Part shown: in pieces, positions 8,136-54,105 of the stretch
Numbering within the stretch: position 1 is the first letter of the stretch
Layout: each line of letters opens with the position of its first letter
NCBI GenBank assembly: GCA_050008535.1
Contig: JBEKML010000001.1
Span: forward strand, 66,246-130,245
Direction of reading: 5' to 3'
Source of the DNA: Minisyncoccia bacterium
Lineage (GTDB): Bacteria > Patescibacteriota > Minisyncoccia > UBA6257 > 2-01-FULL-56-20
DNA length: 64,000 nt
The notes under the pieces: generated by a model
The model's input: the letters and a program-made list of their open reading frames with translations, nothing else
What the model was told of the DNA's origin: nothing
Database searches by the model: none
Translations under genes and position numbers: made by a program

Positions 8136-8138
8136 GGC

Positions 8139-8360: not shown

Positions 8361-8421
8361 ATAGTACTATGGTCTATCCAAACATTCAATATCCAAAGTT
8401 TGGATATTACAAAACGGCCAT

Positions 8422-9119: not shown

Positions 9120-9133
9120 GCCCCTGAATAACA

Positions 9134-13933: not shown

Positions 13934-14031
13934 AGAATCTCAAAACGCTTCCGAAGAATGTTTGTGGGGTCTCACTCATAAAGGTCTGAGGCCTTGGAAG
14001 GGCGCAGCTTCATTGGTGGTATAATTAAACT

Positions 14032-14580: not shown

Positions 14581-14589
14581 GCGGCGCCG

Positions 14590-15348: not shown

Positions 15349-15413
15349 TGCGTCAAACGATTTACGAGGATATTGAAAATGGGAAGAAGTGGCGTATAAT
15401 AGGAAGCGTTATC

Positions 15414-15485
15414 GCGGGTATCGTATAGCGGCTATTATGCGACCTTGCCAAGGTCGAGATACGGGTTCGACTCCCGTTACCCGCT
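15414..15485 (+). tRNA. tRNA-Gly (GCC)
   Basis: Acceptor stem gcgggta/tacccgc. Anticodon stem cgacc/ggtcg with loop ttGCCaa. T-arm acggg-TTCGACT-cccgt. Confidence 0.7.
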
Positions 15486-39112: not shown

Positions 39113-39118
39113 CCGCGC

Positions 39119-40120
39119 TTACGGCTGCAGCCGGTTCATCGCTGCCGCGAAGCCGGCCTGCGAGGTGCTCAAAATAAGATCGGTTTGGTACCAGCCATAG
39201 AGAAACGAGCCGGCCGTCCTCACTGCCGTGCCGCCGACCAAACCGTCCACAAAGCCGTTCGCGGGAAGCGCGCCGACATTCGTCAGGAAAAAATTAGGAA
39301 TGCTGGGCGATGACTCAAGTTTTGCGACGTCGCTCTTTAAAAAGAGCCAATTCTCGCCGGACTTGAGCGAAAGTATGTATGCCGGCGAGAAGCCGTTCTT
39401 GTCCTGATAAACGAAGAATGTCGCGTCGGGATTGAAATGCGCGGCAAGGAACTGCGGGTCAAGCACGGCTGCGCTCTCCTGCGCAAAAATATCCCCAACG
39501 GGGACGCCTTTGTGGTCGGCGGTCTGTACGACAATCTCGATGACCGCTGCATCCTTCTTCGCTTGCGCAAGAAGCGCCGAAATTTTTTGATCGAAGGTTT
39601 GAAGGTCGGCTGCATTGGACGCCATGCCGCCCGTCGAAGAGGTGGAGAGCGTAAGAACGAGCGTCTGATCGGCGGGTTTTTTGAAAAGTGAAATATGAAC
39701 GAATGGCGACGCCTGGGCGGGAAGAACCGTGGTCGACGGCTGGTTCCCTGCCGGCGCGGCAACCGGGACCTGCGCTCCGCCCTGCGCCGGCGCGGTGCCC
39801 GATTGCACCGGCTGCGCCGCGGGCGCGAAAAATATCCTGTACGCGAAATAACCAAGCAAACCAAGCATCGCCACTGCGGCGATAACGACAAGGGCCATCA
39901 CCATGCCGCTTTTCCTTTTATCCTGCACGGCGACCGGCTCCGGCGGATATTTCCCACGCGACAAGTTCGCTATTTTTACACTTTCAAACTGCGGCAGCCC
40001 GCCGCCGCTTTTTGCCATCGATTCCAGATCCGAGCGCATCGTCCGGACCTTCACTTCGGACGGCGGCGGGGGCGGCGAAGGCGCATCCCCGGGAAAACGA
40101 GTGTCCCTTACTTCATCCAT
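39119..40120 (-). CDS. Pro/Ala-rich single-TM hypothetical protein
   Basis: N-terminal PSPPPPPSEVKV. TM segment MVMALVVIAAVAMLGLLGYFAY. Confidence 0.5.
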   Translation of the reverse strand: MDEVRDTRFPGDAPSPPPPPSEVKVRTMRSDLESMAKSGGGLPQFESVKIANLSRGKYPPEPVAVQDKRKSGMVMALVVIAAVAMLGLLGYFAYRIFFAPAAQPVQSGTAPAQGGAQVPVAAPAGNQPSTTVLPAQASPFVHISLFKKPADQTLVLTLSTSSTGGMASNAADLQTFDQKISALLAQAKKDAAVIEIVVQTADHKGVPVGDIFAQESAAVLDPQFLAAHFNPDATFFVYQDKNGFSPAYILSLKSGENWLFLKSDVAKLESSPSIPNFFLTNVGALPANGFVDGLVGGTAVRTAGSFLYGWYQTDLILSTSQAGFAAAMNRLQP

Positions 40121-40174
40121 TTGTTTTCATTTTACCACGAAATCAAAAAGTCTCCTTCGGCGCTCGCGGTTTTT

Positions 40175-42304
40175 TTACGATTGCAATTGCTTGATGGACA
40201 TCCGAATACGGCCGTCGTCGTCAACGCTTATGATCTTCGCGCGCACGAAATCGCCCACCTTCACCACGTCTTCTACGTTCTTCACGAAACCGCCGCTCTT
40301 CAATTCCGAAACGTGGACCATGCCGTCCTTGCCGCCGCCCAAGTCCACAATCGCCCCGAATTCCAATATCTTTACAACGTTTCCCTCAACGATCTCGCCC
40401 ACTTTGAATTCCCGTGCGATGCCCTTGATCTCCGCGACCGCCGCCTCTACCTTTGCGAGGTCAGTGCCCGAAACGAACACGCCGCCGTCGTCGTCAATAT
40501 CAATTCCCGCAAGCCCGTATTTCTCAATAAGGCCATTAATGACCTTGCCGCCCGGCCCGATCACCGCGCCGATCTTTTCCTTCGCGATCTTCAATTGCCG
40601 GATGGTAGGCACGAAGGGCGACAGTTTCTCGCGCGGCGCCGCGATCACGCCGTTCATAACGTTCAAGATCTCAAGCCGCGCCTTCCTGGCCTGCGCCATC
40701 GTCTTTTCGATAATTTCCACCGTGAGGCCATCCACTTTGATATCCATCTGTATGCCCGTCACGCCATCCGCCGTGCCGCCCACTTTGCAGTCCATATCGC
40801 CGTGATGATCCTCCGGTCCCTGGATGTCCGTAAGCACTTTATAATTGTTCACATCCTTCATCATCAGGCCCATCGCAATGCCCGCCGCCGGTTTTTTCAA
40901 AGGCACGCCCGCGTCCATCAGGGAAAGTGACGATGCGCATACTGTCGCCATAGAAGACGAACCGTTGGAGGACATGATCTCGGAAACCACGCGGATCGTG
41001 TAGGGAAATTCCTCTTTTGTCGGGATGAGCCGTTCCAGAGATTTCCGCGCAAGATTGCCGTGGCCGATCTCGCGCCTGCCCGGCCCGCGGAACGTGCCCA
41101 CCTCGCCAACCGAGAACGGCGGAAAGTTATAGTGCAGCATGAAGCGGCGCTTGGTCGTTGTCTCCATGGTTTCGATCATCTGCTCCGCACCGGGCGCCGC
41201 GAGCGTGGTCACCGCGAGCGCCTGGGTGTTCCCGCGCACAAAAAGCGCCGAGCCGTGCGTCCGCGAGAAGAGCGCCACCTCGCCATCCAGCGCGCGCAAT
41301 TCATCGAGCTTCCGCCCATCCGGCCTCCGCTCATTTGAAAGCGCCTCGCGGTGCACAATGTCGTTCACTGCTTCCTCAAAGAGGAATTCCGCCGCTTTCC
41401 AGTCCACCTCTTTTTTCTCCTTCCCCTCCGCAGCGCCCGCCTCGGATGACGTCTTCAAATGCATGAAAAACTCTGTTTTTAGCTCGCCGATCGCGTTCTG
41501 CTGCTCCATCTTGTTCGGACGGAAGACCGCCGTCTCCAATTTGTCTGCGAGGTACGCTCCGACCGCCGCTTTCAATTCTTCGTCCGGCTCCGAAATCTTT
41601 ATCTCCACTTTTTCTTTTCCGATCTCTTTTTTAATCTTTTCCTGAAACTCCACCAGGCGGTTGATCTCTTTCTGCGCCATCGTGAACCCCTGCACAATAT
41701 CTTTCTCCTGCGCATCCAGGCCGCCCAGCTCCAGCATGTTGATCCGGTCCTTCGTGCCGGAAACGAACGCATCGAACGCCGGCGGGTTCGCAACGATAAA
41801 AGAATTGTCCGGGTTGATCTTAAATTCATTTCCTACCTGCGCCACACGCACGCCGGCAACGGGCCCGTTCCATGGGATGTCGGAGATAAGGAGCGCCGTT
41901 GAAGCGCCCAAAAGCCCCACAAATTCCGGGTCGTTTTCTTCGTCAATCTGCAAAACCGTCACGACCACCTGGATCTCGCGCCGGATGCGGTCATTAAAGA
42001 GCGGCCGGATCGTGCGATCCACAAGCCGCCCCGCAAGGATCGCCTCTTCGGAGGAACGTCCCTCGCGGCGGATAAAACGGCTCCCGATGATCTTCCCTGC
42101 GGCATAAAATTTTTCCTCGTAATCAACTTTGAGCGGAAGATAATCGGTGGCGCTCTCCTTCCGTGCCATTACCGCCGTTGCCAATACGACGGTCTCGCCG
42201 TACTTCGCGATCACCGCGGCGTTCGCCTGTTCGGCGAGCGAGGAAACCTCAATGCTCAGCGTTTTCCCGGCAACGTCAACTGAAAATTGTTTTTTCTTTA
42301 ACAT
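40175..42304 (-). CDS. pnp: polynucleotide phosphorylase
   Basis: Two RNase PH domains. KH domain GPGGKVINGLIEKYG. C-terminal S1 domain. Confidence 0.95.
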   Translation of the reverse strand: MLKKKQFSVDVAGKTLSIEVSSLAEQANAAVIAKYGETVVLATAVMARKESATDYLPLKVDYEEKFYAAGKIIGSRFIRREGRSSEEAILAGRLVDRTIRPLFNDRIRREIQVVVTVLQIDEENDPEFVGLLGASTALLISDIPWNGPVAGVRVAQVGNEFKINPDNSFIVANPPAFDAFVSGTKDRINMLELGGLDAQEKDIVQGFTMAQKEINRLVEFQEKIKKEIGKEKVEIKISEPDEELKAAVGAYLADKLETAVFRPNKMEQQNAIGELKTEFFMHLKTSSEAGAAEGKEKKEVDWKAAEFLFEEAVNDIVHREALSNERRPDGRKLDELRALDGEVALFSRTHGSALFVRGNTQALAVTTLAAPGAEQMIETMETTTKRRFMLHYNFPPFSVGEVGTFRGPGRREIGHGNLARKSLERLIPTKEEFPYTIRVVSEIMSSNGSSSMATVCASSLSLMDAGVPLKKPAAGIAMGLMMKDVNNYKVLTDIQGPEDHHGDMDCKVGGTADGVTGIQMDIKVDGLTVEIIEKTMAQARKARLEILNVMNGVIAAPREKLSPFVPTIRQLKIAKEKIGAVIGPGGKVINGLIEKYGLAGIDIDDDGGVFVSGTDLAKVEAAVAEIKGIAREFKVGEIVEGNVVKILEFGAIVDLGGGKDGMVHVSELKSGGFVKNVEDVVKVGDFVRAKIISVDDDGRIRMSIKQLQS

Positions 42305-42344
42305 GTTTTTAACGATGGGGAGGGGTGTCCTTCCCCCGCCGCCC

Positions 42345-42953
42345 TTACGCGCGCAATTTCATGATCGCGCGCGGAACATCTTCAATGTTGATGAACCGGT
42401 CGGCGGCCTCTTGTATTTTTGATGATGCGCTGCGGCGGAAGGCGGCCACTTCTACGAGGCGGCCGGCTCCCCACTTGAGATAATCCACGAGGGGCAGGAA
42501 GTCGCCATCGCCCGTAACCAGTATGATCACGTCCAAAAACGAGGACATCCTGATGGCGTCCACGGCCATTCCGACGTCCCAATCCGCCTTTTTCATGCCC
42601 CCCGCGTAGATCTGGAGGTCCTTCATGCGAAGTTCAAGCCCCGCTTTTTCCAGCGCCTCAAAAAATGCCGCCTCAGAAGATAACGACTCCCCGTTTTCCT
42701 CAGCGTGAGGCCGCGCGAGCGTCCGCTTGGCCTCCGTTCCGCCGGAACGGCCCCCAAAGTGCTGGGGCTCCACGCCTTCGCTCTTCACCACGTACGCAAG
42801 GGCGCGGATGAGCTGCCGGTCGCCCACAAGATGTTTTATAAGTTCCGCGTAGTTCACGCGGCCGTGATAAAGGTTCTTTGCAGAATGGTAGAGGTTCTGC
42901 ACGTCAACAAAAATCCCAACTCGCTGGTTGGAATAGGTAGGGGCGCCTTTCAT
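42345..42953 (-). CDS. NYN-domain (LabA-like) protein
   Basis: Motifs VGIFVDVQNLY and VIILVTGDGDFLPLV. It is inserted between rpsO and pnp. Confidence 0.65.
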   Translation of the reverse strand: MKGAPTYSNQRVGIFVDVQNLYHSAKNLYHGRVNYAELIKHLVGDRQLIRALAYVVKSEGVEPQHFGGRSGGTEAKRTLARPHAEENGESLSSEAAFFEALEKAGLELRMKDLQIYAGGMKKADWDVGMAVDAIRMSSFLDVIILVTGDGDFLPLVDYLKWGAGRLVEVAAFRRSASSKIQEAADRFINIEDVPRAIMKLRA

Positions 42954-43219
42954 TATCTTTTAAGGTCTAATTTTTTCACCAGCTTCCCGTATGCCGACGG
43001 TTCGTTTTTATGGAGGTATGTCAAAAGCTTCCGCCGCTTGGACACCATCTTCAAAAGCCCGCGCCGCGAGTGGTTGTCTTTCGGATTTTTTTTCAGGTGC
43101 GCCGCGAGTTCGTCAATCTGCCGCGAAACTATGGCGATCTGCACGTCAGCCGAGCCCGTATCCTTTTCGTGCTTCTTATTTTCCCCGATAATGCGGGATT
43201 TAACGCGTTTAGTTAACAT
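42953..43219 (-). CDS. rpsO: 30S ribosomal protein S15
   Basis: 88 aa. Motifs GSADVQIAIVSRQIDELAAHLKKNPKDNHSRRGLLKMVSKRRKLLTYL. Confidence 0.95.
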   Translation of the reverse strand: MLTKRVKSRIIGENKKHEKDTGSADVQIAIVSRQIDELAAHLKKNPKDNHSRRGLLKMVSKRRKLLTYLHKNEPSAYGKLVKKLDLKR

Positions 43220-43563
43220 TATTTTAACTATATCTCAATTTGAGAATTCTTGCAAGAACAGAAGGAATTATAAAATGGATCACGGCGACCTCTATAAGAG
43301 AATCGCCGTGGATATTTCGAGGGGTTGGTGGCGCGAAGATGGGGGTCCAACAAGGAACCGACCTCGGCCCCGATTGCGCTTACTGCAGGGCAGGACGCAC
43401 GGGACACCTACGGTCCCCGCACCGCGCCATCTCGTATCGCGATCCGCCCGACGGCCACACTGGGCCTAGGAGCGAAAGCGCGCAAACCACCAACTCCCTC
43501 TTGTTGCGTTGTAGCATGCCTACAAAATCCTGCCAAGTGGTATTTTGCGACAGGTCAATTACA

Positions 43564-44475
43564 ATGAAAAACATGGCCGAGATCCAAACCCTGCTCCGTG
43601 ACTATCTGAACTATCTGGAGATAGAGAAAAATCGCTCGCCGAAGACACGGGAGAATTATGAGCACTATTTGAATGAATTTTTGAAATTTTCCAAGGCGAA
43701 ATCGCCGAGGGACATCACCGACGGCGTCGTACGGGAGTTCCGCCTTGCCCTCGCCCGCTCCGCCCCAAGCGGCAAGGGATCGCTCAAAAAGATCACGCAG
43801 AGTTATTACGTGATCGCAATCCGGAACTTCCTCAAATATTTGGCGAAACGCGACATAAAAACGCTTGCGGCGGAAAAAATAGAACTGCCCAAAACGCCGT
43901 CGCGGCAAATTGAAGTGCTTGAATACGGCGACCTGGAACGGCTCCTTGCTGCGCCGAAGAAACAGACGCTCCGCGACCTCCGCGACAAGGCGATCCTGGA
44001 AACATTTTTTTCTACCGGCCTCCGCCTTTCGGAACTGTGCGCCCTGAATCGCTACCTTGATCTCAAGCGCGGCGAGGTTTCCGTCCGCGGGAAGGGCGAT
44101 AAACTGCGCGTTGTCTTCATCGCCGATTCCGCGCGGGCGGCCATCCAAAAGTATCTCGCGAAGCGCAGCGATGCCGAGGAAGCGCTTTTTGTCAGTTTGG
44201 ATAAATCGGGAAAAGTAATCGGCCGCGTGACGCCGCGGGCGGTCCAACGCCTCGTGGCCTCCCGCGCACGCGAGGCCGGCATCGCAAAGCACGTGCACGC
44301 GCACCAACTCCGCCACAGCTTCGCAACCGACCTTTTGATGAACGGCGCCGATCTCCGCTCCGTCCAGGAACTCCTCGGCCATTCCAATATTGCGACAACG
44401 CAGGTCTATACCCACCTCACGAACAAAGCCCTCCGCGAAGTGCACCAGGCATTCCACGGGAGGAGAAGGAAATAG
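43564..44475 (+). CDS. tyrosine site-specific recombinase XerC/XerD family
   Basis: C-terminal catalytic box HAHQLRHSFATDLLMNGADLRSVQELLGHSNIATTQVYTHL. Start taken at the internal ATG at 43564. Everything upstream in the ORF is untranslated leader. Confidence 0.9.
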   Translation: MKNMAEIQTLLRDYLNYLEIEKNRSPKTRENYEHYLNEFLKFSKAKSPRDITDGVVREFRLALARSAPSGKGSLKKITQSYYVIAIRNFLKYLAKRDIKTLAAEKIELPKTPSRQIEVLEYGDLERLLAAPKKQTLRDLRDKAILETFFSTGLRLSELCALNRYLDLKRGEVSVRGKGDKLRVVFIADSARAAIQKYLAKRSDAEEALFVSLDKSGKVIGRVTPRAVQRLVASRAREAGIAKHVHAHQLRHSFATDLLMNGADLRSVQELLGHSNIATTQVYTHLTNKALREVHQAFHGRRRK

Positions 44476-44556
44476 TGCTGGGGGCGGGACTTGAACCCGC
44501 AAGCCTTGCGGCGCCGGCTCCTAAAGCCGGTGCGTTTGCCATTTCGCCACCCCAGC
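44476..44556 (-). tRNA. tRNA-Leu (TAG), class II with long variable arm
   Basis: On the minus strand. Acceptor stem gctgggg/ccccagc. Anticodon stem ccggc/gccgg with loop ttTAGga. Variable arm ccgcaag/cttgcgg. T-arm gcggg-TTCAAGT-cccgc. It abuts the xerC/D stop codon. Confidence 0.7.
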
Positions 44557-44696
44557 CGAAATAGATCCCTACCTACAGTACCGATTATATAGTATCAAGA
44601 ACTTCTTGAACTTGACAATATCATCTATATATGGTAAACTCTATCCACGCAGTCTTGACATCAATAAATAAGGGATAGGAAATAAGGAGACCGACA

Positions 44697-45683
44697 ATGA
44701 CATGGAACAGGTTTTTGCGGCTGACTGCCCGATGGGCAATCATCGCCATGATCGTCGTGATCGCCGCAACAATCGTCGCCTCGTTTGCCGTGATCGTCGC
44801 AAGATTGGCATGGCAAGCAAAGGAGGCGTTTCTGTTCGGGTTCATAGGGCTCACGATCGCCTACGTGGTGATCTTTGTCCTCTTCGCCGCGCTCGTGCGA
44901 TGGCTGTGGCCGATAGCAACACAACAGGAGAGGAGGCCCTCTTTCTGGACAGCGCTTCGGAATGAACTCCTGGCGCTTGGTCCGAACACCGAACACGCAG
45001 CGACCAACCCTCACAACAACCGCCGGTGGAGTTACTTGGCGATAATGATGGTAGTTACCCTCTTCATCGCCATTGCGAACCCTGGAGCCCCGCTCCTCAC
45101 GAGCGGACTCCGCCACTTGCCCGCGGACGTCATGGACGACACCGCGCGGCAGAAGGTGAACACCGGATGGGAATGGTTCCTTCATGGGAATACACCTGAC
45201 GCCACCAAGCTAAGTAGTTTGCCGTCATGGATCACAAACGACCCGCGATGGCGCGGCGCTCACAAAGAAGATAGCGAAGCGCTGCCACCGCGCGAGCCAA
45301 GTTGGTTCTGGTGGCATGCGTTCATGCTCTACGTGCTCGCGACGCTCATCTACTTCCCCATCGCTTTCTGGGACGAGTTCCGGGCAGGCGTAAACGGGGC
45401 GATCGCGGTATTCCACGAGCACCGCGAACGGCACGAAGGGCGACAACGAGAAGCCCACGCAGCGGCTGTCCGGGCTCAAGCCGCCGCCGCACAGGCACAA
45501 CCACGGGGTCGGCGAGGACAACAACCTCCGCCACCACCGCCAGCGCCCGCTCCAGCCCAAAGCTGGTGGCGAGAAGCCGGCCAGATTGCCCTTGTGGACA
45601 TGGGCATGGAGATGTTCTACAGGTTCGCGCATGAGTTCATTAACGCCTTGCGGACGAGGCAGGCGGGAGGAGCGGTGATATGA
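44697..45683 (+). CDS. polytopic membrane hypothetical protein with Pro/Gln/Ala-rich C-terminal region
   Basis: GC-rich ORF. Its stop overlaps the next start (ATGA). Confidence 0.55.
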   Translation: MTWNRFLRLTARWAIIAMIVVIAATIVASFAVIVARLAWQAKEAFLFGFIGLTIAYVVIFVLFAALVRWLWPIATQQERRPSFWTALRNELLALGPNTEHAATNPHNNRRWSYLAIMMVVTLFIAIANPGAPLLTSGLRHLPADVMDDTARQKVNTGWEWFLHGNTPDATKLSSLPSWITNDPRWRGAHKEDSEALPPREPSWFWWHAFMLYVLATLIYFPIAFWDEFRAGVNGAIAVFHEHRERHEGRQREAHAAAVRAQAAAAQAQPRGRRGQQPPPPPPAPAPAQSWWREAGQIALVDMGMEMFYRFAHEFINALRTRQAGGAVI

Positions 45684-46609
45684 ACAACAGACTTCGACTT
45701 CGCAGCGCTCTATTGATCGCGCTGGTCACGGCAGTGCTCCTGAGGATCCTCACGCCACTGCCCGTCACAACAACCTTCGCTGCGCTTCTCTTTTTCTTCG
45801 TCCTTCAATTCATCGAAGAACGGTTTGGAACGGGAGTGCGCATCGCGACATCCTGGGGGAAGATCGCCGTCAGAACCACTGTGGCATTCGCGGCATTTGT
45901 CGCGCTGCGGTTTCTCCTGGGCCAGGTCCTCGGCGTTTACCCCGTAGATGCCCACACCGACTGGGGCGACTACGGCGGGTTCAACGGTATCTTCTGGGGC
46001 CACAAGGCTCCCGGGAGCATCGTCAACGAACTGGTGATCCTCGGCATCCTCGGTTGGATCATGTGGGGATACCTGCACAAGAAGAGGATGGCAAAGCTCG
46101 CCACCTACGCCCTTGTAGGGATAATCCTTCTTGGTGTTCTCTTCCCGCCATGGGCCTTAACCTGGTCCAAGACGCGCGATGAGATCGGCAAGTCCCTCGC
46201 CGAGAAGGGGGTGGCCGCCACCCTGGGCGCCGGTCTGACGCCGTCGTCGCAGGATCCGAAGAACTACCCCGGCTACGAGAGAAAGATCGTCGGGGCAGCG
46301 GACCTTGGACGTTCCGTCAATGGTCCCAGCGACATCACCACGGTGAAGCTGGAAACCGGCGGCTTCCACGGTCCGGTCCGCGTGGACCCTCGGATCAACA
46401 ACTTTGAGGTCGCCCACAGCCGTAATCCGGGGGATTGGATTTCCGTTTGGTGCGGCAACAGGACCGCGCCGAACAGGATCCACTCCACAAACGAGGAGTT
46501 CGGCACGAATGAATTCCGCTACTGCTATGACAGGGCGGGACTCACCACCGAGTTCTACGTTCAGGGTCACGGCGAAGTGACCGTCCGCACCTTGAGTTAC
46601 AATCGGTAA
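45680..46609 (+). CDS. polytopic membrane hypothetical protein
   Basis: It is coupled to the upstream gene and ends at a strong terminator. Confidence 0.55.
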   Translation: MNNRLRLRSALLIALVTAVLLRILTPLPVTTTFAALLFFFVLQFIEERFGTGVRIATSWGKIAVRTTVAFAAFVALRFLLGQVLGVYPVDAHTDWGDYGGFNGIFWGHKAPGSIVNELVILGILGWIMWGYLHKKRMAKLATYALVGIILLGVLFPPWALTWSKTRDEIGKSLAEKGVAATLGAGLTPSSQDPKNYPGYERKIVGAADLGRSVNGPSDITTVKLETGGFHGPVRVDPRINNFEVAHSRNPGDWISVWCGNRTAPNRIHSTNEEFGTNEFRYCYDRAGLTTEFYVQGHGEVTVRTLSYNR

Positions 46610-46631
46610 CGCGATGCGTTACCACTAGACC

Positions 46632-46666
46632 CCACCAGGCTCCGCGCAGCCTGGTGGTTTTTTTTT
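46632..46666 (+). terminator. Rho-independent terminator
   Basis: Stem ccaccaggc/gcctggtgg, followed by a run of nine T. Confidence 0.8.
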
Positions 46667-46760
46667 AAAAATGAGCGTGGGGAAATCCGACGCCCTCAAC
46701 CCAAAACGGCCCTCGCGGGCCGTTTTGGAAAACTACAGATTAAACCTGACAAACCAACCA

Positions 46761-47147
46761 CTAGCACGCACTGACGCCTCCGCCACCGATGAAGCTCGCT
46801 GCAATGAAGGGAATGCCCTTCGCGACGAGCGCGATGATCACGGCAATCGCGGCGTAGAGCAATGTGGCTCCTGCCGCTTTCACTTTCTCTGGATCGCCCG
46901 CCGCGGTCAGATACTTGAAGGCCGAAACGAGGACGAAAACGATCGCAGCGATGATAAGAAGGTAAAACAGCCAGTTGATGATCGTACAGAACAATCCGCC
47001 CGATCCCGTAAGCTGGGACACGCTCGTTACGGGCGATGCCGGCGCGGTTATGCCCGGTCCCTGGAATTGCGCCGACGCCATGAGCGGCAACGCAAGCGCC
47101 AAGACCGGAACACCAAATTCCTTCACGATTTCTTTAATCTTTCTCAT
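46761..47147 (-). CDS. TrbC/VirB2-like pilin paralog 1
   Basis: Signal peptide, then two TM helices around AAGDPEKVKAAGATLLYAAIAVIIALV. Gly-rich tail. Confidence 0.6.
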   Translation of the reverse strand: MRKIKEIVKEFGVPVLALALPLMASAQFQGPGITAPASPVTSVSQLTGSGGLFCTIINWLFYLLIIAAIVFVLVSAFKYLTAAGDPEKVKAAGATLLYAAIAVIIALVAKGIPFIAASFIGGGGVSAC

Positions 47148-47222
47148 AAATGTATGGGTTTTTCGACCTTTCGATGATTGCCTACCTAGTATACTGCTTC
47201 CTAAAAAACAGCGCAAAACGGC

Positions 47223-47651
47223 CTAGACGCTAACGCTGCCACTGCCCCCACCGCCCCCACCGCCACCGGGGCAAATGGTGCCGCCGAACCCGCTGCCAAG
47301 AAAACTCGAAATAAGGAACGGAATTCCTTCCGCCACAAGAGCAACCACGACCGCAATCGTAGCATAGAGAAGGATCTTGTTCGCGGTACGGACATGCTCC
47401 GGATCACCAGCAGAGGTAGCATAGCGATACCCTCCGATCAAGAACATTATAATCGCGAAGACGATAAGCCCCCAAAAGATCCAATCAAGCGCGACGCAAA
47501 CAATGCTGCTGATGGTTTGCGTACTATCAAGCACGCCCGTAGGGATCTTGCCCGTAGGAGGTTCCTGCAGTGCTAACGCCACCGGCGCGAGCAAGGTCAT
47601 TCCCAGAGCCACCATACTTACTACTGCCCGAGAAGTAAAAAGTTTATTCAT
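47223..47651 (-). CDS. TrbC/VirB2-like pilin paralog 2
   Basis: CVALDWIFWGL...SAGDPEHVRTANKILLYATIAVVVAL. C-terminal poly-Gly tail. Confidence 0.6.
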   Translation of the reverse strand: MNKLFTSRAVVSMVALGMTLLAPVALALQEPPTGKIPTGVLDSTQTISSIVCVALDWIFWGLIVFAIIMFLIGGYRYATSAGDPEHVRTANKILLYATIAVVVALVAEGIPFLISSFLGSGFGGTICPGGGGGGGGSGSVSV

Positions 47652-47668
47652 GATTCCGCAATATTATG

Positions 47669-48058
47669 CTAACTACAGGCACTCAACTGGCCAGAGGAAA
47701 CCCCAAGAAAACTCCCGATCAGGATGGGGACCCCGCGCGCCGCAAGCGCGACGACCACCGCGATCGCGGCATAAGTGAGTGTCTTTGTCGCTTGACCGAC
47801 CTTTTCTGAACTACCACCCGATGTTGCATAAATATAACCGCCGACAAGGAACATTACAACCGCAAGCACCATAAGCCCCCAGAACATCCAATCAAGCGCC
47901 ACACAAAAAATCGCCACGACCTGGTCGCTGTTCGTGAGAATGTTCGTCGGCATGGTCGCGGCGCTCACGCTCCCTGCCGCAAAGAAAACGGTCAGAATCC
48001 CCGCGATGCCCGCGCCCGGGAAAGAACGTCCGTAAAGCAATTTTTTTATCGTTTTCAT
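47669..48058 (-). CDS. TrbC/VirB2-like pilin paralog 3
   Basis: CVALDWMFWGL...SGGSSEKVGQATKTLTYAAIAVVVAL. Confidence 0.6.
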   Translation of the reverse strand: MKTIKKLLYGRSFPGAGIAGILTVFFAAGSVSAATMPTNILTNSDQVVAIFCVALDWMFWGLMVLAVVMFLVGGYIYATSGGSSEKVGQATKTLTYAAIAVVVALAARGVPILIGSFLGVSSGQLSACS

Positions 48059-48086
48059 GTTAATGCAATAATATCACGGAACGCCG

Positions 48087-48416
48087 TTAACTTGAACTGC
48101 CAAACAAGTTCTGGATGAGCGCCGCGACGCTTCCGGCAATAAGGACCACCGCGAATCCAATCACCGCGTAAAGGATCGTCTTTTTCCCTTTTGTAAATTT
48201 TTCCGGGTTCCCTGCCGCCATCATCATTTGGAAACCGCCAACAAGGACCAAGATACCGCACAGCGGAATTGCGATCGTGAAAAGAAAGTTCATGACGGCC
48301 GTCATGGGGCAGGTCAGATCATTGCAGCTGCCGAGAGGGTTCTGAAGTGTTGTGGGGTTTGACCCGGTTACCTGAGCGAAAACAGTTTTTATGCCGAGAA
48401 GAAGTGATTGAATCAT
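48087..48416 (-). CDS. TrbC/VirB2-like pilin paralog 4
   Basis: AAGNPEKFTKGKKTILYAVIGFAVVLIA. The same two-TM architecture. Confidence 0.55.
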   Translation of the reverse strand: MIQSLLLGIKTVFAQVTGSNPTTLQNPLGSCNDLTCPMTAVMNFLFTIAIPLCGILVLVGGFQMMMAAGNPEKFTKGKKTILYAVIGFAVVLIAGSVAALIQNLFGSSS

Positions 48417-48429
48417 TTCTTTTATTCTA

Positions 48430-48966
48430 TCATAAACTTGCTGTGGTGGGGCAAAAACTAAGGGGAAAAGAGCGGCCGCTCAGGGCATTGCTTGCATCAT
48501 AGGGAATCCCTTCCGAAACGGAGAGTTTGCAGGCATCTTTCTGGGTTATGCCGAGGAGACCAAGAAAACCGGCCTCTGCGGTGACTTGCCACGCACTGAA
48601 CGGCTGGCTCGTTATGGCGATCCAAAAACTACCATTCCCGGTGTCGTACGAAATGAAATAATTGGGTGTTACCGCGAGGAGCGCATTGCCGTCGGAATCT
48701 ATTTTGGGATCCAAAAGATAAAAATTTTTCACGACGACGCTCCCCCTCGGCGTCCCAAGTGTCAAGGTGGGACCTTTCGGCGCATCCGGCATCGCTTGCG
48801 ATGCCGGAACCCCGCCGAAATTCGCAGAAACGCCGCTTGTAGGAACGCCCCCGTTTCCCGATGAAGCGGGCGTGGGCGATGGTGAACCCCTAAAAAGAAC
48901 GAAGGCAGCGACTGCCGCCGCGATTATGACAAGAATGGCAACTATTATAAGAATGATGTTTTTCAT
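48430..48966 (-). CDS. N-terminally anchored exported hypothetical protein
   Basis: TM anchor, then a Pro/Ser/Gly-rich linker and a beta-rich domain. Confidence 0.5.
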   Translation of the reverse strand: MKNIILIIVAILVIIAAAVAAFVLFRGSPSPTPASSGNGGVPTSGVSANFGGVPASQAMPDAPKGPTLTLGTPRGSVVVKNFYLLDPKIDSDGNALLAVTPNYFISYDTGNGSFWIAITSQPFSAWQVTAEAGFLGLLGITQKDACKLSVSEGIPYDASNALSGRSFPLSFCPTTASL

Positions 48967-48978
48967 GCGTGATGGTCT

Positions 48979-49770
48979 TTAACATCCGCCTCCGGGAGCG
49001 GAACGTATATGAACATTATCCCCCGTGGTGGTGTCATATCTGGTGCCGCCGCATCCTGTATATTCATTAAGAACCGATGTGTTGCAATTCTGCGCGGCGC
49101 GCTTAATGGCCTGCACATCGCTACAGTTTCCGCTATTCACTTGGATATCCACGCAACAGCCATTGTTGTGGCACAACGAAGTATGGCGAACGGTCGGCGG
49201 CATCGCTTCGGTAATAGTAATCCCCGGCGCACCATTTTGTTGCAAACACTTGAGAGTATCCACCATCCCTTGTGCCGCCGAGCAGCTGTTCACGCCGCCG
49301 GGCTGTTGGCTCGCCGGCTTACAGGCAAATCCACCACCGGAAAGTGATTGACACGATCCACTGGCACATCCGGTCGCGCCGGTGCCGGGACCGGTGCCAG
49401 CACCGGCTCCCGGCCCCGCCGACGTCCCGCTAAGCGCCGTAACCCCCATGATCTGCAAGGAAACAAGTTGGGGGTTGATGGTATAGAGGATGATATAGGC
49501 ACCCACCAGGAGTAGGAGCCCAAGGAGGGCGTTCGTGATCCAGCTCTTGCCTTCGGTCTCCGATGAGGGATTCCCCTTCCCTGTGGCATACCTGATCCCG
49601 CCCCAGACGATGGCCCCGAAGGCGAGGATGCCCGCAAAGGCAAGAGCGAGCTGGTAGAGCCCCGTGATATACGTCGCAGGGTTCGTGGCGACGCCTGCCG
49701 GCATGCCGGGGAGATTTGGGTTTATGGTGACCGTCGCGTCGGCAAGCGCTTTCAAAATAAAAAGGTGCAT
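48979..49770 (-). CDS. TrbC/VirB2-like pilin core fused to a C-terminal Cys-rich domain (paralog 5)
   Basis: Pilin-like core ATGKGNPSSETEGKSWITNALLGLLLLVGAYIIL. A (PG)(TG) linker. A C-terminal domain of about 120 aa with at least 12 Cys. Confidence 0.55.
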   Translation of the reverse strand: MHLFILKALADATVTINPNLPGMPAGVATNPATYITGLYQLALAFAGILAFGAIVWGGIRYATGKGNPSSETEGKSWITNALLGLLLLVGAYIILYTINPQLVSLQIMGVTALSGTSAGPGAGAGTGPGTGATGCASGSCQSLSGGGFACKPASQQPGGVNSCSAAQGMVDTLKCLQQNGAPGITITEAMPPTVRHTSLCHNNGCCVDIQVNSGNCSDVQAIKRAAQNCNTSVLNEYTGCGGTRYDTTTGDNVHIRSAPGGGC

Positions 49771-49786
49771 TTAGTTAAGTTGCTCT

Positions 49787-50380
49787 TTATTCACAATTCC
49801 ACACACCATTATCAGCATGAAGGTGGCACGATAGTGGCGATTTGCAGTTTGTTTCGCAAGCCCTAAGGAGGTCGGTCGACCCTGCCCCCGTGGTCGAATT
49901 GTCCCCTTGAGAAGACTGAGGACGTTCCACGCTGCATGCCGGGCCACCGAATCCCCCGATGTCTGTCACCTTTAAAACGTTCACGAAAACAGAGATGATA
50001 AGATACGCGCAGAGTACGATAAGCAGCCCGATCACGACCCTCGTCGCCCTGTCCCTTGCAGCGCTTATTCCTTGGGGATTCCCCTGTGAAAGAATAAGCG
50101 ATATCCCGCTCCACGCGATCATGATCGGTGCGATGATCCAGATCACGACGCCGATGCCGAAATAGATGACGTTCGCCGCGGTGCTCACGAGGTCGCAGAG
50201 GTCCTCACAATTTTTGGTGTCCGTGCCACCCCCGGTGCCGGCCCCGGTGCATGAAATGAGCGGCCCTCCTAGGATGCTTGGGCTCCACACATTGCTGTGG
50301 ATCGCCGCAGACGCAACGTACGGCAACGCGGTAGCCATAAGGATCACAACAAGCGGGAGAAGATACGCAATTTTCTTCAT
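49787..50380 (-). CDS. TrbC/VirB2-like pilin core with Cys-rich N- and C-terminal extensions (paralog 6)
   Basis: Core LSQGNPQGISAARDRATRVVIGLLIVLCAYLII. Flanking Cys clusters CTGAG...NCEDLCD and ACSVE...CETNCKSPLSCH. Confidence 0.55.
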   Translation of the reverse strand: MKKIAYLLPLVVILMATALPYVASAAIHSNVWSPSILGGPLISCTGAGTGGGTDTKNCEDLCDLVSTAANVIYFGIGVVIWIIAPIMIAWSGISLILSQGNPQGISAARDRATRVVIGLLIVLCAYLIISVFVNVLKVTDIGGFGGPACSVERPQSSQGDNSTTGAGSTDLLRACETNCKSPLSCHLHADNGVWNCE

Positions 50381-50387
50381 ATCTGTA

Positions 50388-51671
50388 TTATCGCATAAGT
50401 TGCGTTACGGCGGCTTCCGCCTCTTTGAGCGCCCTTACGGAGTCCTCCGCGCCGGTCAAAACATTCTTGATCGCGGTATCGAAGATGGCATCTATCCTTG
50501 CAGCGTCGGCTTCGTGCCATGACCGTGCCGTAAGCGCCTGCAGAGCGAAAACGGAAAGGTTGGGATCATTCGCATCGCCCTGGATCACGGTGCGGAGAGC
50601 GGGCGGTTTCCCCGTGGCATTCTGGTATGCCGTCGCATTTGCAGGGACGGTCGTCAAATAAAGGATGAGGTTCCATGCCACGGCCGCCTGCCCCGTCCGC
50701 GCCGCCACGAAACCGTCGTAGTTTGGATAATTCACCGCAACGCTCGCGCCTTTGGCCTGCGGCACCGGCGCAATGCCAATGTTAAGGAACGGCGCCTTTG
50801 CCCTTATCTTTGCAAAATCCGACTGATAGGCGAAAATGATCGCCGTCTTCCCGGCAACGAAACTATCAACGGCGTTCCCCATCGCGTCGTTCCAGGCGTA
50901 GTACGGCGAGGCGGCATTCGCGAACTGGAGGTAAAAATTGAACGCGCCAATGCCCGTCGCGCCGCTATCCTGCCCTGCAAAGGTTGCCGCGGTATTGCCG
51001 TCGTTCGTCATCTGCGTCCCATTCTGAAGCATAAGGAGAGAAAGAATGTCCGGCGCGTGGGGGACGCCCGCAAGCGACCCGCCGATCGCCGCTGCGGCCT
51101 GTGTCAATTTACCTTGCGCATCCACTGCGCGGAGCCGCACGACATCCGCATCAAAGTCGTCCCATGTTTTTGGGAGGATCGCGATGCCGGCAGAGTTCAG
51201 GAGGTCCTTGTTGTACACCATGACAAGCGTGTCAATGGAAAGCGGGAGTCCGTAGATCTGCCCGTTTGAAGTGAAATCCCGCGCCACAACATCCGGGAAT
51301 TCGCTCTGAAGCGCAAGGAAGTTGAATTGCGTTGACGAGGTGGGGAACGGCGCAACGGCCGACTTCCACTTCGGCAGATCGCGGTTGTTTATTTCAAACA
51401 CGTCGGGGCCCGTGCCTGCCGCGAGCGCGGAAAGGAGCCGGCTCGCGTAATTCGCGGCGTCAACCTCCACGTAATTTATTTTGCCGTACGGATAGGACGC
51501 AAGAATGCTTCCGAGCACTGTGCTGTTTTCCGTGCCCCAAACCGTAAGCGTGACCGCGGGGCCCGTATTTGTTTTTGGTCGCAGCCCCCAAAAGATAAGG
51601 AAGAAAATGACGATCACAAGAACCGCCCCGCCGATGATGATAGTGACCTGTTTTTGGGAAAATTTTGGCAT
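50388..51671 (-). CDS. extracellular solute-binding protein (ABC transporter SBP family 1-like), N-terminally anchored
   Basis: TM anchor, then TLTVWGTE...GPDVFEIN, which is typical of sugar-type SBPs. Confidence 0.7.
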   Translation of the reverse strand: MPKFSQKQVTIIIGGAVLVIVIFFLIFWGLRPKTNTGPAVTLTVWGTENSTVLGSILASYPYGKINYVEVDAANYASRLLSALAAGTGPDVFEINNRDLPKWKSAVAPFPTSSTQFNFLALQSEFPDVVARDFTSNGQIYGLPLSIDTLVMVYNKDLLNSAGIAILPKTWDDFDADVVRLRAVDAQGKLTQAAAAIGGSLAGVPHAPDILSLLMLQNGTQMTNDGNTAATFAGQDSGATGIGAFNFYLQFANAASPYYAWNDAMGNAVDSFVAGKTAIIFAYQSDFAKIRAKAPFLNIGIAPVPQAKGASVAVNYPNYDGFVAARTGQAAVAWNLILYLTTVPANATAYQNATGKPPALRTVIQGDANDPNLSVFALQALTARSWHEADAARIDAIFDTAIKNVLTGAEDSVRALKEAEAAVTQLMR

Positions 51672-51675
51672 CGTG

Positions 51676-54105
51676 CTAAATGACGACAGTCCCCGCCAGG
51701 CGGTCGCCGCCCTTAAGGTTCATGATGTGGACGCCTTGCGCCGCGCGGCCGGTCGTACGCACTGTTTCGAGCTTCGTACGAATCATCTGGCCTTTTGCAG
51801 AAAGCGCGAAAAGCTCTTTCTCTTCGGTCACGACATGCGCCGAAAGCAGCATCCCCGTCTTCTGGGTTACCTCCGCCGTCTTGATCCCGGAGCCGCCGCG
51901 GCTTTGCGTCTTGTATTCTTTAAGCGCCGTCTGCTTCGCAAAACCGTTCTCCATGACGACGAGAAGCTTTGCTTCTCCTCCTTTGATTATATCAAAGCCC
52001 GCAACCTCGTCGTTCTGTTTTTTAAGCTTGATCGCGCGGACGCCTGCGGCCGTGCGGCCCATCGGACGCACCTGTTTTTCTTCAAAACGGATGGATTGCC
52101 CCTGCCGCGTGGCCAAGATCACCTGGTCTCCGCCGCCCGTGAGCTTCGCCCACTTCAAGTGGTCCCCTTTCTTTAGGGAAATTGCGATGATGCCCGTCCG
52201 GCGGATGGCGAGAAACTCCTCAAGCGGCGTCTTTTTGACCACGCCGTGCCTTGTCACCATCATAAGATATTTTTTCTTCTCGCCCTTCGCGGAATAGTTC
52301 ACGATCGCGCTCACGGTTTCGTCCGCCGGGAGTTCCAGGAAGTTCTGAATCGCCTTGCCCTTCGCGGTGCGCGTCGCCTGCGGGATCTCGTACACCTTTG
52401 TCTGGAACACGCGCCCGCGATTTGTGAAGAACAAAACATTGTCGTGCGTCCGCGCGCTGAAGAAATGCGAGAGGAAATCCTCTTCCGCCACTTCCGAACC
52501 GATCAATCCCTTCCCGCCGCGCTTTTGCACTTTGAAGGTGCTCGGCGGCAGGCGTTTGATGTAACCGCCGCCCGAGACCGTCACGATCGCATCCTCGTCC
52601 ACAATAAGATCTTCGTCGCTCACCGCGGCGATCCCGTGCGCCACCACCTGCGTCCGCCGTTCGTCACCGTATTTTTCCTTCAATGCATGGACTTCATCCT
52701 TGATGATCTTTAGGATCTTTGCAGGGCTCTTTAAAATGAGCGTGAGTTCTTCAATAAGCGCCTTTTTTTCTTTCAATTCCGCTTCTATCTTTTGGTGCTC
52801 AAGCGCCGCGAGCGTTTGCAGGCGCATTTCCAAAATCGCCGTCGCCTGCACGTCGCTCAATTTAAATTGTTTTACAAGGTTCACGTGCGCCTCTTCTTTG
52901 TCCTTCGATTTCTTGATCGTCGCGATCACGCGATCAATGGCGTTCAGAGCTTTCGCAAGCCCTTCCAGGATGTGTGCACGCTCCTCGGCTTTCTTAAGAT
53001 CGAACTGCGTGCGGCGTTTCACCACCTCTTTCCGATACGCCAAATACTCAACAAGGATATCCCGCAGGGAAAGGAGCCGCGGCTCAAGACCGTGCTCGCT
53101 CGCAACAAGCGCGGTCATGTTCATATTGAAATTCTTCTCAAGATCGGTGTGCTTGTAGAGCCAGTTCAGCACCTTTTGTGGCGATACGTCGTTCTTGAGC
53201 TCTATCACAATACGCATCCCTTCGCGGTCCGATTCGTCGCGCAGGTCGCGGATGCCCTCAATTTTCTTTTCCTGCGCTAATTCGGCGATCATCCGCACGA
53301 GCTCCGCCTTATTCACCTGGTACGGGATCTCGGTCACCACAATGTCGAACTGCTTGCCGGCCTTATTTTCCACGATCTCCGCCCTCGCGCGCGTGAGGAT
53401 CGCTCCGCGCCCCGAAACGTAGGCCTCTTTGATCGCTTTTGTGTCATAAATGATGCCGCCCTTCGGAAAATCCGGGCCCTTCACGAATTGCAAAAGGTCC
53501 TCGCTGGTCGCATCCGAATTATCCGAAAGATGCAGGATCGCGTCCGCGATCTCGCCCAGATTGTGGGTGGGGATGCTCGTCGCCATGCCGACCGCGATGC
53601 CCAAAGCGCCGTTCAAAAGAAGATTGGGCAGCTTTGCGGGAAATACCATCGGCTCTTCCCGCGTCGCGTCGTAATTCGGCATCCAATCAACCGTTTCTTT
53701 TTCAATATCAAAAAGCAGTTCCTCCGCGATCGCCGACATTTTCGCCTCCGTGTACCGCATCGCGGCCGGCGAATCCCCGTCCATGGAACCGAAGTTTCCC
53801 TGTCCGTGCACGAGCGGATAACGCAAAGAAAAATCCTGGGCCATGCGCACCAGCGTGTCATAGATCGCCGAGTCGCCGTGAGGGTGGTATTTCGCCATCG
53901 TCTCGCCCACGACGTTCGCCGACTTCCTGAACTTCGCGAGATGCGTAAGGCCCGCATCCCACATCGCCCACAGGACCCGCCGGTGCACCGGCTTCATCCC
54001 GTCGCGCACATCGGGCAGCGCGCGCGCGATGATAACCGACATCGCATAATCAAGGTAGGATTCGCTAAGCTCTTTGGTAATTTCCCTCTTTTCCAAATTG
54101 GGCAT
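51676..54105 (-). CDS. gyrA: DNA gyrase subunit A
   Basis: Active-site AAMRYTEAKM with catalytic Tyr. The QRDR region VGETMAKYHPHGDSAIYDTLVRMAQDF. C-terminal beta-pinwheel repeats. Confidence 0.93.
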   Translation of the reverse strand: MPNLEKREITKELSESYLDYAMSVIIARALPDVRDGMKPVHRRVLWAMWDAGLTHLAKFRKSANVVGETMAKYHPHGDSAIYDTLVRMAQDFSLRYPLVHGQGNFGSMDGDSPAAMRYTEAKMSAIAEELLFDIEKETVDWMPNYDATREEPMVFPAKLPNLLLNGALGIAVGMATSIPTHNLGEIADAILHLSDNSDATSEDLLQFVKGPDFPKGGIIYDTKAIKEAYVSGRGAILTRARAEIVENKAGKQFDIVVTEIPYQVNKAELVRMIAELAQEKKIEGIRDLRDESDREGMRIVIELKNDVSPQKVLNWLYKHTDLEKNFNMNMTALVASEHGLEPRLLSLRDILVEYLAYRKEVVKRRTQFDLKKAEERAHILEGLAKALNAIDRVIATIKKSKDKEEAHVNLVKQFKLSDVQATAILEMRLQTLAALEHQKIEAELKEKKALIEELTLILKSPAKILKIIKDEVHALKEKYGDERRTQVVAHGIAAVSDEDLIVDEDAIVTVSGGGYIKRLPPSTFKVQKRGGKGLIGSEVAEEDFLSHFFSARTHDNVLFFTNRGRVFQTKVYEIPQATRTAKGKAIQNFLELPADETVSAIVNYSAKGEKKKYLMMVTRHGVVKKTPLEEFLAIRRTGIIAISLKKGDHLKWAKLTGGGDQVILATRQGQSIRFEEKQVRPMGRTAAGVRAIKLKKQNDEVAGFDIIKGGEAKLLVVMENGFAKQTALKEYKTQSRGGSGIKTAEVTQKTGMLLSAHVVTEEKELFALSAKGQMIRTKLETVRTTGRAAQGVHIMNLKGGDRLAGTVVI

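Follow-up and report, generated by a model that had tools for sequence, protein, structure and literature searches.

A probable core pilin-array locus of a chromosomal type IV secretion system in a Patescibacterium, with a Hedgehog/DD-peptidase-like domain predicted on one pilin hairpin

We analysed a stretch of 64,000 nucleotides from a Minisyncoccia bacterium (GenBank assembly GCA_050008535.1, contig JBEKML010000001.1, positions 66,246-130,245 of the forward strand; hereafter the window), in which six small genes for VirB2-like pilins, P1 to P6, lie between gyrA and a tRNA-Leu gene. We consider it probable that this region is a core, vertically inherited pilin-array locus of a chromosomal type IV secretion system (T4SS) in a Paceibacteria-type Patescibacterium. 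Arrays of this kind have already been published (Wang et al., 2023; Quinonero-Coronel et al., 2025). What appears to be undescribed is the fusion of a pilin-type hairpin to a Hedgehog/DD-peptidase-like domain in P5, the swap of this domain for other wall-hydrolase-like modules in other species, and the concerted, invertible pair that P5 forms with P5', a paralog located in the VirB4 gene cluster. Patescibacteria make up a large part of bacterial diversity, and the findings bear on the question of what their T4SS moves and how two cell walls are crossed. In Paceibacteria, the array would be a fixed core locus paired with a machinery locus beside the origin, and sequence passes between the two loci, whose recombination can invert the intervening DNA. 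P5, with a predicted wall-peptidase-like domain on a pilin hairpin, is a concrete candidate for the wall-breaching step.

All pilin genes are on the minus strand, where the order of transcription is gyrA, a solute-binding protein (SBP) gene, P6, P5, the non-pilin gene np178, P4, P3, P2 and P1, with tight spacing (Table 1). Hydropathy segments of a two-helix transmembrane (TM) hairpin are found in all six pilin-like proteins, which in the short proteins P1-P4 follow a signal peptide, and P1-P5 pass the cut-off of the Pfam family PF18895 (T4SS_pilin), which is 26.6 bits. An earlier, sequence-only reading of this DNA had assigned the proteins to the T4SS pilins on the basis of a signature motif of the type (A/S)xG(D/N)PE(K/H)V; the assignment stands, and the motif is present in P1-P4. 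The same reading had seen six consecutive paralogs. The six hairpins are there, but they are not consecutive, np178 being placed between P4 and P5. In NCBIfam, array proteins show sub-threshold matches to a Mycoplasma ICE pilin-like family. Judged by these profiles, P1-P5 are homologs of VirB2-type T4SS pilins, while P6 is linked to them only by blastp to its paralogs.

The proteins P1-P4 are 30-59% identical to each other (blastp), P2 and P3 being the youngest duplicate pair, with 59% amino acid identity and 70% DNA identity over 209 nt. P1, P2 and P3 contain exactly two cysteines each, of which the first marks the outer edge of helix 1 and the second belongs to the C-terminal tail (54/128 in P1, 52/128 in P3), and exactly two are also found in 52 of 100 small pilin-like open reading frames (ORFs) of related loci. 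TrbC/VirB2 pilins undergo head-to-tail cyclisation, and the cysteine pair of P1-P3 may form a hairpin-closing disulfide, a functional analogue of this cyclisation. P6 and P5' both end in a small knob with four cysteines and are related to each other (blastp, 1e-7). At least 12 cysteines had initially been ascribed to both P5 and P6; P5 has 12, whereas P6 has nine, five of them after the hairpin. A DsbA-like gene is present in the same window at 14590-15348.

Is the locus an acquisition, or an inherited part of the chromosome? We scanned for the P5 family in one genome per GTDB species, which gave 71 loci, and sorted these by tblastn with the window proteins and with T4SS proteins. The order gyrA-SBP-P6-P5 was found in the loci of 27 GTDB species, with P6 kept upstream of P5 in all 27, np178 next wherever the contig allows, and Xer-rpsO-PNPase where the contig reaches that far. 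The order conserved in these species-level, Paceibacteria-type genomes is GyrA-SBP-P6-P5-np178-pilins-tRNA-Leu-Xer-rpsO, and a relative at about 75% DNA identity (L002) shows it as well. In all nine relatives checked, Xer and the array side are separated by the tRNA-Leu(tag), which is directly beside Xer in four of them. The stretch from the pilins to the tRNA-Leu is the variable part of the locus, apart from diverged homologs of the membrane protein genes mem309 and mem328 in a few species.

The sequence-only reading had recognised an integration-site geometry at the tRNA-Leu and had taken the region for a possible genomic island, with a core surface locus as the fallback. On the island explanation, the adjacent tyrosine recombinase would have inserted the membrane proteins and an acquired pilin array there. 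The observation that the stop codon of the recombinase abuts the 3' end of the convergent tRNA-Leu is correct and speaks for an island, as do the variation among genera of the genes between the pilins and the tRNA-Leu, the GC content of mem328 and mem309, about two standard deviations above the core value, and the somewhat AT-rich P4 and np178. This geometry is nevertheless wrong for an island: an element integrated at the 3' end of the tRNA would extend away from the pilins, whereas the array is on the 5' side of the tRNA and the core genes rpsO, PNPase and RecA are on the integrase side. The gene order from gyrA to rpsO, including the tRNA-Leu(tag), is kept across genomes whose GyrA is only 70-87% identical, which is also what the proposed synteny comparison at the tRNA-Leu brought to light. 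A 25-nt probe for the tRNA-Leu 3' end, with up to three mismatches, recovered only the tRNA itself in the window, so that no second tRNA 3' end is present there, and there are no relevant repeats in 43-52 kb. The suggested check for a compositional shift found no coherent deviation: gene GC in the locus ranges from 0.50 to 0.61, scattering to both sides of the core value (GC 0.551 +/- 0.027, GC at third codon positions 0.670 +/- 0.036; 21 genes of 16-64 kb outside the locus). The membrane genes, described as GC-rich, are so only mildly, at about 0.60 (0.605, mem328) and 0.61 (mem309), and mem309 has homologs of 33-36% identity at the same position in two other species (L012 and L020), in which mem328 has weak positional homologs.

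The recombinase itself scores as an XerC/D/A-type protein, with 228.7 bits against the XerA-type model of NCBIfam (cut-off 220) in addition to the matches in Table 1. Its orthologs are 70-86% identical and adjoin rpsO in those related loci that are long enough to include that part. The 300-aa form, whose ORF ends at 44475, agrees with the gene called in sister contigs. Family scores and neighbourhood thus mark it as a housekeeping-type Xer recombinase, a conserved neighbour rather than an island integrase. We reject the island, which is almost certainly the wrong explanation; the conserved gene order of 27 species-level genomes argues for the fallback, a core and vertically inherited locus.

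A pilin array calls for an assembly machinery, and the sequence-only reading had concluded that it must be elsewhere or different. A location outside the window proved right: tblastn found no VirB4 homolog in the window, the large ORFs scanned with Pfam contained no T4SS family, and the FtsK encoded there has chromosomal alpha/gamma domains. The recommended search for VirB4 beyond the window was successful, since VirB4, PrgI and TrsD-like genes were found on contigs of the same species near dnaA. These contigs (L098-L101) were identified through P5' (P0052, 157 aa), and one of them, L100, comes from the same sample as an array contig identical to the window (L004). Their gene order is KsgA, the T4SS genes, P5', a gene for a 427-aa protein, Jag, two large proteins, YidC, RnpA, dnaA and dnaN, with the end of the machinery cluster about 8 kb from dnaA.

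Around 35 loci of the species scan are of this machinery type. They encode, in order, proteins of 595 aa, 783 aa (polytopic) and 338 aa (338/347), PrgI, a 225-aa TrsD-like protein, VirB4, sometimes a 299-aa protein, then a 240-aa protein, P5' and the 427-aa protein, with Jag and YidC downstream on the opposite strand; in about 35 species, then, P5' is the penultimate gene of the VirB4 cluster. Family scores for VirB4, PrgI and the TrsD-like protein were taken on the copies of a further contig, L001, whose VirB4 is identical to that of L098-L101. The protein of 577 aa belongs to the CD1110 family of VirB4-like ATPases (NF045971, 401.7 bits, cut-off 325), that of 169 aa is PrgI (PrgI/VirB3, 37.6 bits, cut-off 27), and that of 225 aa matches both TrsD and the VirB4 N-domain. 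The 783-aa protein (L098 1963-4314), with about 6-8 hydrophobic segments and a large soluble part, is the best VirB6-like candidate, by architecture only. The 299-aa protein (L098 8360-9259) has a membrane segment and a long acidic tail rich in Ala, Glu and Gly, and the 427-aa protein (L098 10443-11726), a single-pass protein with a weak TolB-propeller match, always follows P5'. Family scans of the eight genes upstream and the one downstream of P5', and of those genes only, gave neither a relaxase nor a VirD4. A metagenome scan with the 240-aa T4SS protein gave only relatives of up to 54% identity, which are not the same strain. In five related genomes with both loci on one contig, the array and the machinery lie head to head, 48-55 kb apart, and since the value for the window species is taken by analogy from these, P5' is expected beyond the right-hand end of the window.

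How might the array and the machinery work together? The pilins would be inserted by the Sec pathway with both termini outside, an orientation consistent with the basic inter-helix loop and with the position of all 12 cysteines of P5 after the second helix. The VirB4 machine would then extract them and assemble a pilus or a short conduit through the envelope, in which the divergent paralogs could serve as major and minor subunits or as host-range variants. P5 could act as a membrane- or filament-tethered peptidoglycan peptidase, providing a VirB1-like opening of the cell's own wall or of the host's. By analogy with Southlakia epibionticum, the whole system may support growth on a host cell rather than conjugation.

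The main rival to this T4SS reading holds that PF18895 hairpins are two-helix membrane anchors, or membrane proteins that display extracytoplasmic modules, and not filament subunits. Such a role would suit the variety of C-terminal modules, at least five, that are found on one type of hairpin at the P5 and P5' positions, and a VirB2-type helical filament could hardly accommodate a globular domain of 130 aa other than at its end. In the parental arrangement, known from related genomes, the array is also some 50 kb away from VirB4. On the other hand, P1-P4 are bare hairpins without any cargo domain to display, P5' is placed within the VirB4 cluster, and in Saccharibacteria both the T4SS cluster and the pilin array, which forms part of it, are essential (PMC10633639). 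We regard the anchor role as unlikely, less clearly so for P5 and P6, and prefer the T4SS pilin reading in full view of the points that count against it. P6 remains below the PF18895 cut-off (E 9e-5) and is tied to the family by blastp, to P5' as mentioned, to P5 (3e-5) and also to P4. The HMM search with PF04956 (TrbC/VirB2), put forward by the sequence-only reading, was negative for all six proteins, the best being P4 with 22.1 bits against a cut-off of 27.9 bits and the rest giving no match; because none reaches this cut-off, we do not file them as TrbC proper. Gram-positive-type T4SSs normally have no pilins. The array is not adjacent to VirB4 in this species, so we infer the functional coupling of the two from paralogy, conservation and a recombinant contig described below. 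Finally, no T4SS pilus has been imaged in any Patescibacterium (PMC12857230), a point that speaks for the anchor role as well.

The most unusual member of the array is P5. Its AlphaFold2 (AF2) model has two helices (31-63 and 68-98) and, beyond a disordered Gly-rich linker, a C-terminal domain modelled with pLDDT above 90, which holds all 12 cysteines, enough for up to six disulfides. Full-length homologs number about 50 (38-90% identity), all from Patescibacterial metagenomes. Compared with PDB structures by Foldseek, the model matched 38 chains of Hedgehog N-domains (ShhN, IhhN, DhhN) with probability 1.0 (0.99 for one of them), followed by MepA, and in a viral library it matched phage wall hydrolases and a Peptidase_M15A protein. 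The motif H201-x6-D208, which reads HNNGCCVD, compares to HYEGRAVD in Shh, and H201/D208, H254, H196 and E236 come in the same order as the zinc-binding and catalytic residues of Shh. What the sequence-only reading had taken for a Cys-rich tip of P5 is thus predicted to be a Hedgehog/DD-peptidase-fold domain with zinc ligands and not just a disulfide knob, while P6 carries only its small 4-Cys knob. Conservation was counted in 128 representative sequences: H201 is present in 126, D208 in all 128 and H254 in 110. The first His of H-x-H occurs in 95, and the three metal ligands together with H196, E188 and E236 are conserved in 80-100%. After its conserved Glu and ahead of its last His, the domain has extra residues inserted. 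A profile of the C-terminal domain alone retrieved 595 clusters at 50% identity (E <=1e-3); in nearly all of the best 150 of these 595 the domain is C-terminal, and 116 of the 128 representatives (91%) also possess the PF18895 hairpin.

Several observations tell against a catalytic, LAS-type reading of this domain. The Foldseek values are modest, with E from 2.6e-3 (about 3e-3) and a target TM-score of about 0.5 (0.54) over some 127 columns, and the correspondence to the Shh active site is one of motif order, not of superposition. The clade of the window reads N252-V-H254, an N-x-H in which the ligand His is kept but the auxiliary His is lost. The P5 domain does not match the Pfam families HH_signal, VanY or Peptidase_M15, and its profile found nothing meaningful among PDB sequences. 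Of its homologs, one per scan (42 and 128 sequences) reached HH_signal, weakly (E 0.008-0.009); in the larger set this match (E 0.009) was the only one to any Pfam family over the domain, 1 of 128. Because there is no sequence-profile membership, we describe the domain, on the strength of its model, as LAS-like and do not file it in M15.

These observations raise the possibility that the domain is a non-catalytic binding module, an adhesin or a ligand of a host polymer, built on a Hedgehog/LAS scaffold with six disulfides. The Asn in place of the first His of H-x-H and the missing sequence match to active M15 families would agree with this, Hedgehog itself is mainly a ligand, and a heavy disulfide content is typical of exposed binding domains. 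The strong conservation of the metal ligands and of H196, E188 and E236 points the other way, as does the requirement of the Saccharibacterial T4SS for peptidase and lysozyme homologs (PMC12102498). So, too, do the proteins that occupy the P5 position in other species, which keep the hairpin and carry other C-terminal modules: VanY (22.5 bits, L015), CHAP (18.9 bits, L026) or the lysozyme-like SLT_3 (about 16 bits), all weak Pfam matches to catalytic domains. A further hairpin homolog (P0072), not counted among the proteins at the P5 position, matches SLT_3 above the cut-off (33.5 bits). On balance the binding module is doubtful, if the most credible of the alternatives considered here, and we favour a putative wall peptidase. 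Direct fusion of a DD-peptidase-like domain to a pilin hairpin is a combination of which we found no mention in the papers searched.

P5 and P5' share a hairpin-coding stretch of 222 nt with about 90% DNA identity, inside which a tract of 62 nt (49514-49575) is identical in both. Two contigs of one assembly connect the two loci through this stretch. Over positions 38979-49635, L001 agrees with the window at 99.98% identity, and it then enters the T4SS cluster, joining the VirB4 cluster directly to P5-np178-P4-P1, while L003 matches the window from 60380 down to 49414 and continues with the 427-aa gene and Jag on to dnaA. Nearly all of the 27 mismatches of L003 are in its last 222 nt (49635-49414), and these are P5' alleles. 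When the parental P5' of L098 is added as a fourth sequence, the allele switch of either recombinant falls between 49576 and 49513, and all four P5/P5' junctions are thereby recovered. One reciprocal crossover between P5 and P5' has occurred in one metagenome population; it inverts the intervening segment and puts the pilin array directly behind the VirB4 cluster. An assembly chimera was considered and rejected, given that both reciprocal junctions are in one assembly and both parental junctions in another sample; it is unlikely because the 62-nt identical tract is shorter than the assembler's k of 141 and both reciprocal products are present. Since the P5 hairpin is closest to the P5' of its own genome in 10 of 13 genomes (71-100% amino acid identity), sequence comparison indicates concerted evolution of P5 and P5'. 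Between the genes that flank the two, blastp detected no paralogy (np178 or SBP against the 427-aa protein).

Could the P5/P5' inverted repeat be a programmed, shufflon-like switch that flips about 50 kb and thereby couples or uncouples the array and the VirB4 operon? The four observed junctions with an allele switch in the same 62-nt tract, the head-to-head layout conserved in five genomes, the similarity of P5 hairpins to their own P5' and a tyrosine recombinase encoded 4.5 kb away would all fit such a switch. However, the recombinant form is known from one contig, compared to eight with the parental P5', the two orientations come from different samples and were not seen together, and the recombinant state is absent from all of about 60 species representatives. 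The crossover lies within ordinary homology, as in RecA-type recombination or gene conversion, and the nearby recombinase is the Xer-like, universally conserved one. A programmed switch is therefore distinctly improbable. A related and bolder thought is that the fused hairpins, P5 here and those with VanY-, CHAP- or lysozyme-like domains in sister species, are built into the T4SS filament or cap it, giving an enzymatically armed pilus that cuts the wall of the host or of the cell itself and fills the role of the "missing VirB1", with the P5/P5' repeat, which flanks about 50 kb beside the origin, re-wiring which module is expressed with the VirB4 operon; we think this rather unlikely, if somewhat less so than the switch.

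Between P4 and P5, np178 encodes a single-pass membrane protein with an extracytoplasmic beta/alpha domain and a C146/C172 pair (AF2 mean pLDDT 79). A single-sequence search gave two homologs and a profile built from locus-derived homologs gave 14; in an alignment of 23 sequences, P63, N81, Y83, Y107, F114, A130, C146 and L148 are invariant. Searches of Pfam and NCBIfam and for named homologs were negative, Foldseek found no match to the model in the PDB (best E 0.21), and a VirB8/NTF2-like role was considered and found unsupported. The SBP upstream of P6 is of the sugar type and anchored in the membrane by its N-terminus, and no gene for an ABC permease or an ATPase adjoins it. Its orthologs are 39-70% identical and always lie between gyrA and P6 in array loci. 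Possible roles are those of an orphan receptor or of a component of the surface system, the link to the pilins being positional only.

On the plus strand, mem328 and mem309, which match no family in Pfam or NCBIfam, are coupled by a 4-nt overlap and followed by a strong terminator, as the sequence-only reading had described. Either of them as VirB6 was considered and dismissed, with no family match and conservation in few relatives only. A second GC-rich hairpin at 46704-46727 (AACGGCCC-tcgc-GGGCCGTT), just 3' of the P1 stop codon and with a T-rich run on the minus strand, is probably the terminator of the pilin operon, convergent with that of the plus-strand pair at 46632-46657.

The only clear compositional block of the window is elsewhere, at 1-14.5 kb, with gene GC of 0.43-0.49 against 0.55 in the core. 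It contains the gene of a large serine recombinase (365-2017), which matches the phrog_95 integrase with 299 bits and overlaps a tRNA-Arg (385-459) at its 3' end, a DnaD/O-like replication initiator (3540-4331), a DNA methylase (11662-12978) and family-less ORFs including one of 843 aa, and it is bounded by a tRNA-Gly (15414-15486). This block, 1-15486, is probably an integrated mobile element or prophage remnant and the real island of the window. An ORF of 1262 aa at 20498-24286, for which the only family match is an N-terminal PG_binding_1 (45.8 bits), encodes a large surface or wall-associated protein.

Table 1. Features of the pilin-array locus (positions in the window)
Feature	Position	Strand	Evidence or remarks
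Xer-type tyrosine recombinase, 300 aa	43573..44475	+	Pfam Phage_integrase 133.6 bits; NCBIfam XerC 249 bits, XerD 232 bits
tRNA-Leu(tag)	44475/44476-44556	-	ARAGORN; Rfam 61.8 bits; abuts recombinase stop codon
mem328, membrane protein, about 4 hydrophobic segments and Pro/Gln/Ala-rich tail	44697..45683	+	Hydropathy
mem309, membrane protein	45680..46609	+	4-nt overlap with mem328
Intrinsic terminator closing the plus-strand pair	46632..46657	+	10-bp stem, 7 GC pairs, then T9
P1, short VirB2-like pilin, signal peptide and two TM helices	46761..47147	-	PF18895 38.7 bits; hydropathy
P2, short VirB2-like pilin, Gly-rich tail	47223..47651	-	PF18895 34.3 bits
P3, short VirB2-like pilin	47669..48058	-	PF18895 34.8 bits
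P4, short VirB2-like pilin, closest to classical TrbC	48087..48416	-	PF18895 43.1 bits; TrbC 22.1 bits
np178, 178-aa non-pilin, single-pass membrane protein between P4 and P5	48430..48966	-	Homologs at same position in 19 GTDB loci
P5, VirB2-like hairpin (~31-104), Gly-rich linker, predicted 12-Cys Hedgehog/DD-peptidase (LAS) fold domain (~133-263)	48979..49770	-	PF18895 34.1 bits; AF2
Hairpin-coding stretch common to P5 and P5', 222 nt	49414..49635	-	blastn; four-junction allele analysis
P6, pilin-like hairpin, Cys-containing N-region, small 4-Cys C-terminal knob	49787..50380	-	PF18895 22.9 bits
SBP, membrane-anchored solute-binding protein	50388..51671	-	SBP_bac_1 96 bits
gyrA	51676-54105	-	

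The closest known system is that of S. epibionticum, the subject of the only genetic study of a Patescibacterium, which showed that epibiotic growth requires the T4SS and a six-pilin array (PMC10633639). Like the window, Ca. Southlakia epibionticum ML1 has six divergent PF18895 paralogs in tandem (SEML1_0014-0019; Wang et al., 2023), and like the window species it has a monoderm-type VirB4/PrgI machinery near dnaA. In both, a Hedgehog/DD-peptidase-fold protein and lysozyme-like proteins are tied to the system, and a pilin gene lies beside rpsO. The C-terminal domain of the essential SEML1_0007, encoded beside virB4, is classed by ECOD as Hedgehog/DD-peptidase, and SEML1_0006 is lysozyme-like (Table S2, PMC10633639), so that the association of a T4SS with this fold has a precedent. 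The Southlakia array, however, is inside the T4SS cluster, whereas here, judging from related genomes, it would be a separate locus in inverted orientation at a distance of about 50 kb; and the Southlakia domain ends a 1113-aa protein, while here it appears directly fused to the pilin hairpin. Southlakia has experiments, the window lineage is known from sequence alone. Across Patescibacteria, 441 VirB2 arrays of 2-11 genes have been surveyed, some of them split by one non-pilin gene (PMC12102498). They are of PF18895/TrbC type, with about 25% mean identity, a VirB4 related to MPF-FATA and the T4SS near dnaA, and are most abundant in Microgenomatia and Saccharimonadia (PMC12102498). The 59% identity of P2 and P3 is slightly above the survey maximum of 54% (PMC12102498). 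The survey makes no mention of hairpin-hydrolase fusions, of the gyrA-to-rpsO locus or of the P5/P5' inverted repeat (Quinonero-Coronel et al., 2025).

Classical VirB2, TrbC and TraA pilins share with P1-P6 a leader, two hydrophobic helices, a short basic loop and small size. The present host is a monoderm, none of the six proteins reaches the classical family profile, and no cyclase or TraX-type modifier is seen; P1-P3 instead have one cysteine at each outer end. We know of no classical VirB2-family pilin with a fused globular domain. In its proposed role, the local opening of peptidoglycan for a T4SS, P5 resembles VirB1, TraG (pIP501) and PrgK, which display a comparable modular swapping of lytic domains (lysozyme-like, CHAP, peptidase). 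It differs from them in having a predicted LAS-fold domain rather than SLT or CHAP, anchored by a pilin-type hairpin and not by a signal peptide or single TM segment. The zinc signature of LAS and bacterial Hedgehog-like proteins is H-x6-D plus H-x-H (Roelink, 2018; PMC6027127). P5 resembles the bacterial Hedgehog-like and M15 DD-peptidases and MepA in combining H-x6-D with (H)-x-H in a domain C-terminal to an N-terminal membrane anchor, and its model matches ShhN and MepA structurally; its lack of detectable sequence homology to their profiles, its 12 cysteines, the insertion before the last His and the N-x-H clade set it apart. Multiplied and diverged pilin genes, with recombination that reshuffles pilin parts, are also known from the VirB2 arrays of Bartonella and Anaplasma and from the R64 shufflon, although these belong to diderm pathogens or plasmids. 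The R64 shufflon relies on the dedicated recombinase Rci and short sfx sites to swap C-termini, whereas P5 and P5' exchanged parts by one crossover within ordinary homology, which swaps the N-terminal leader and the operon context.

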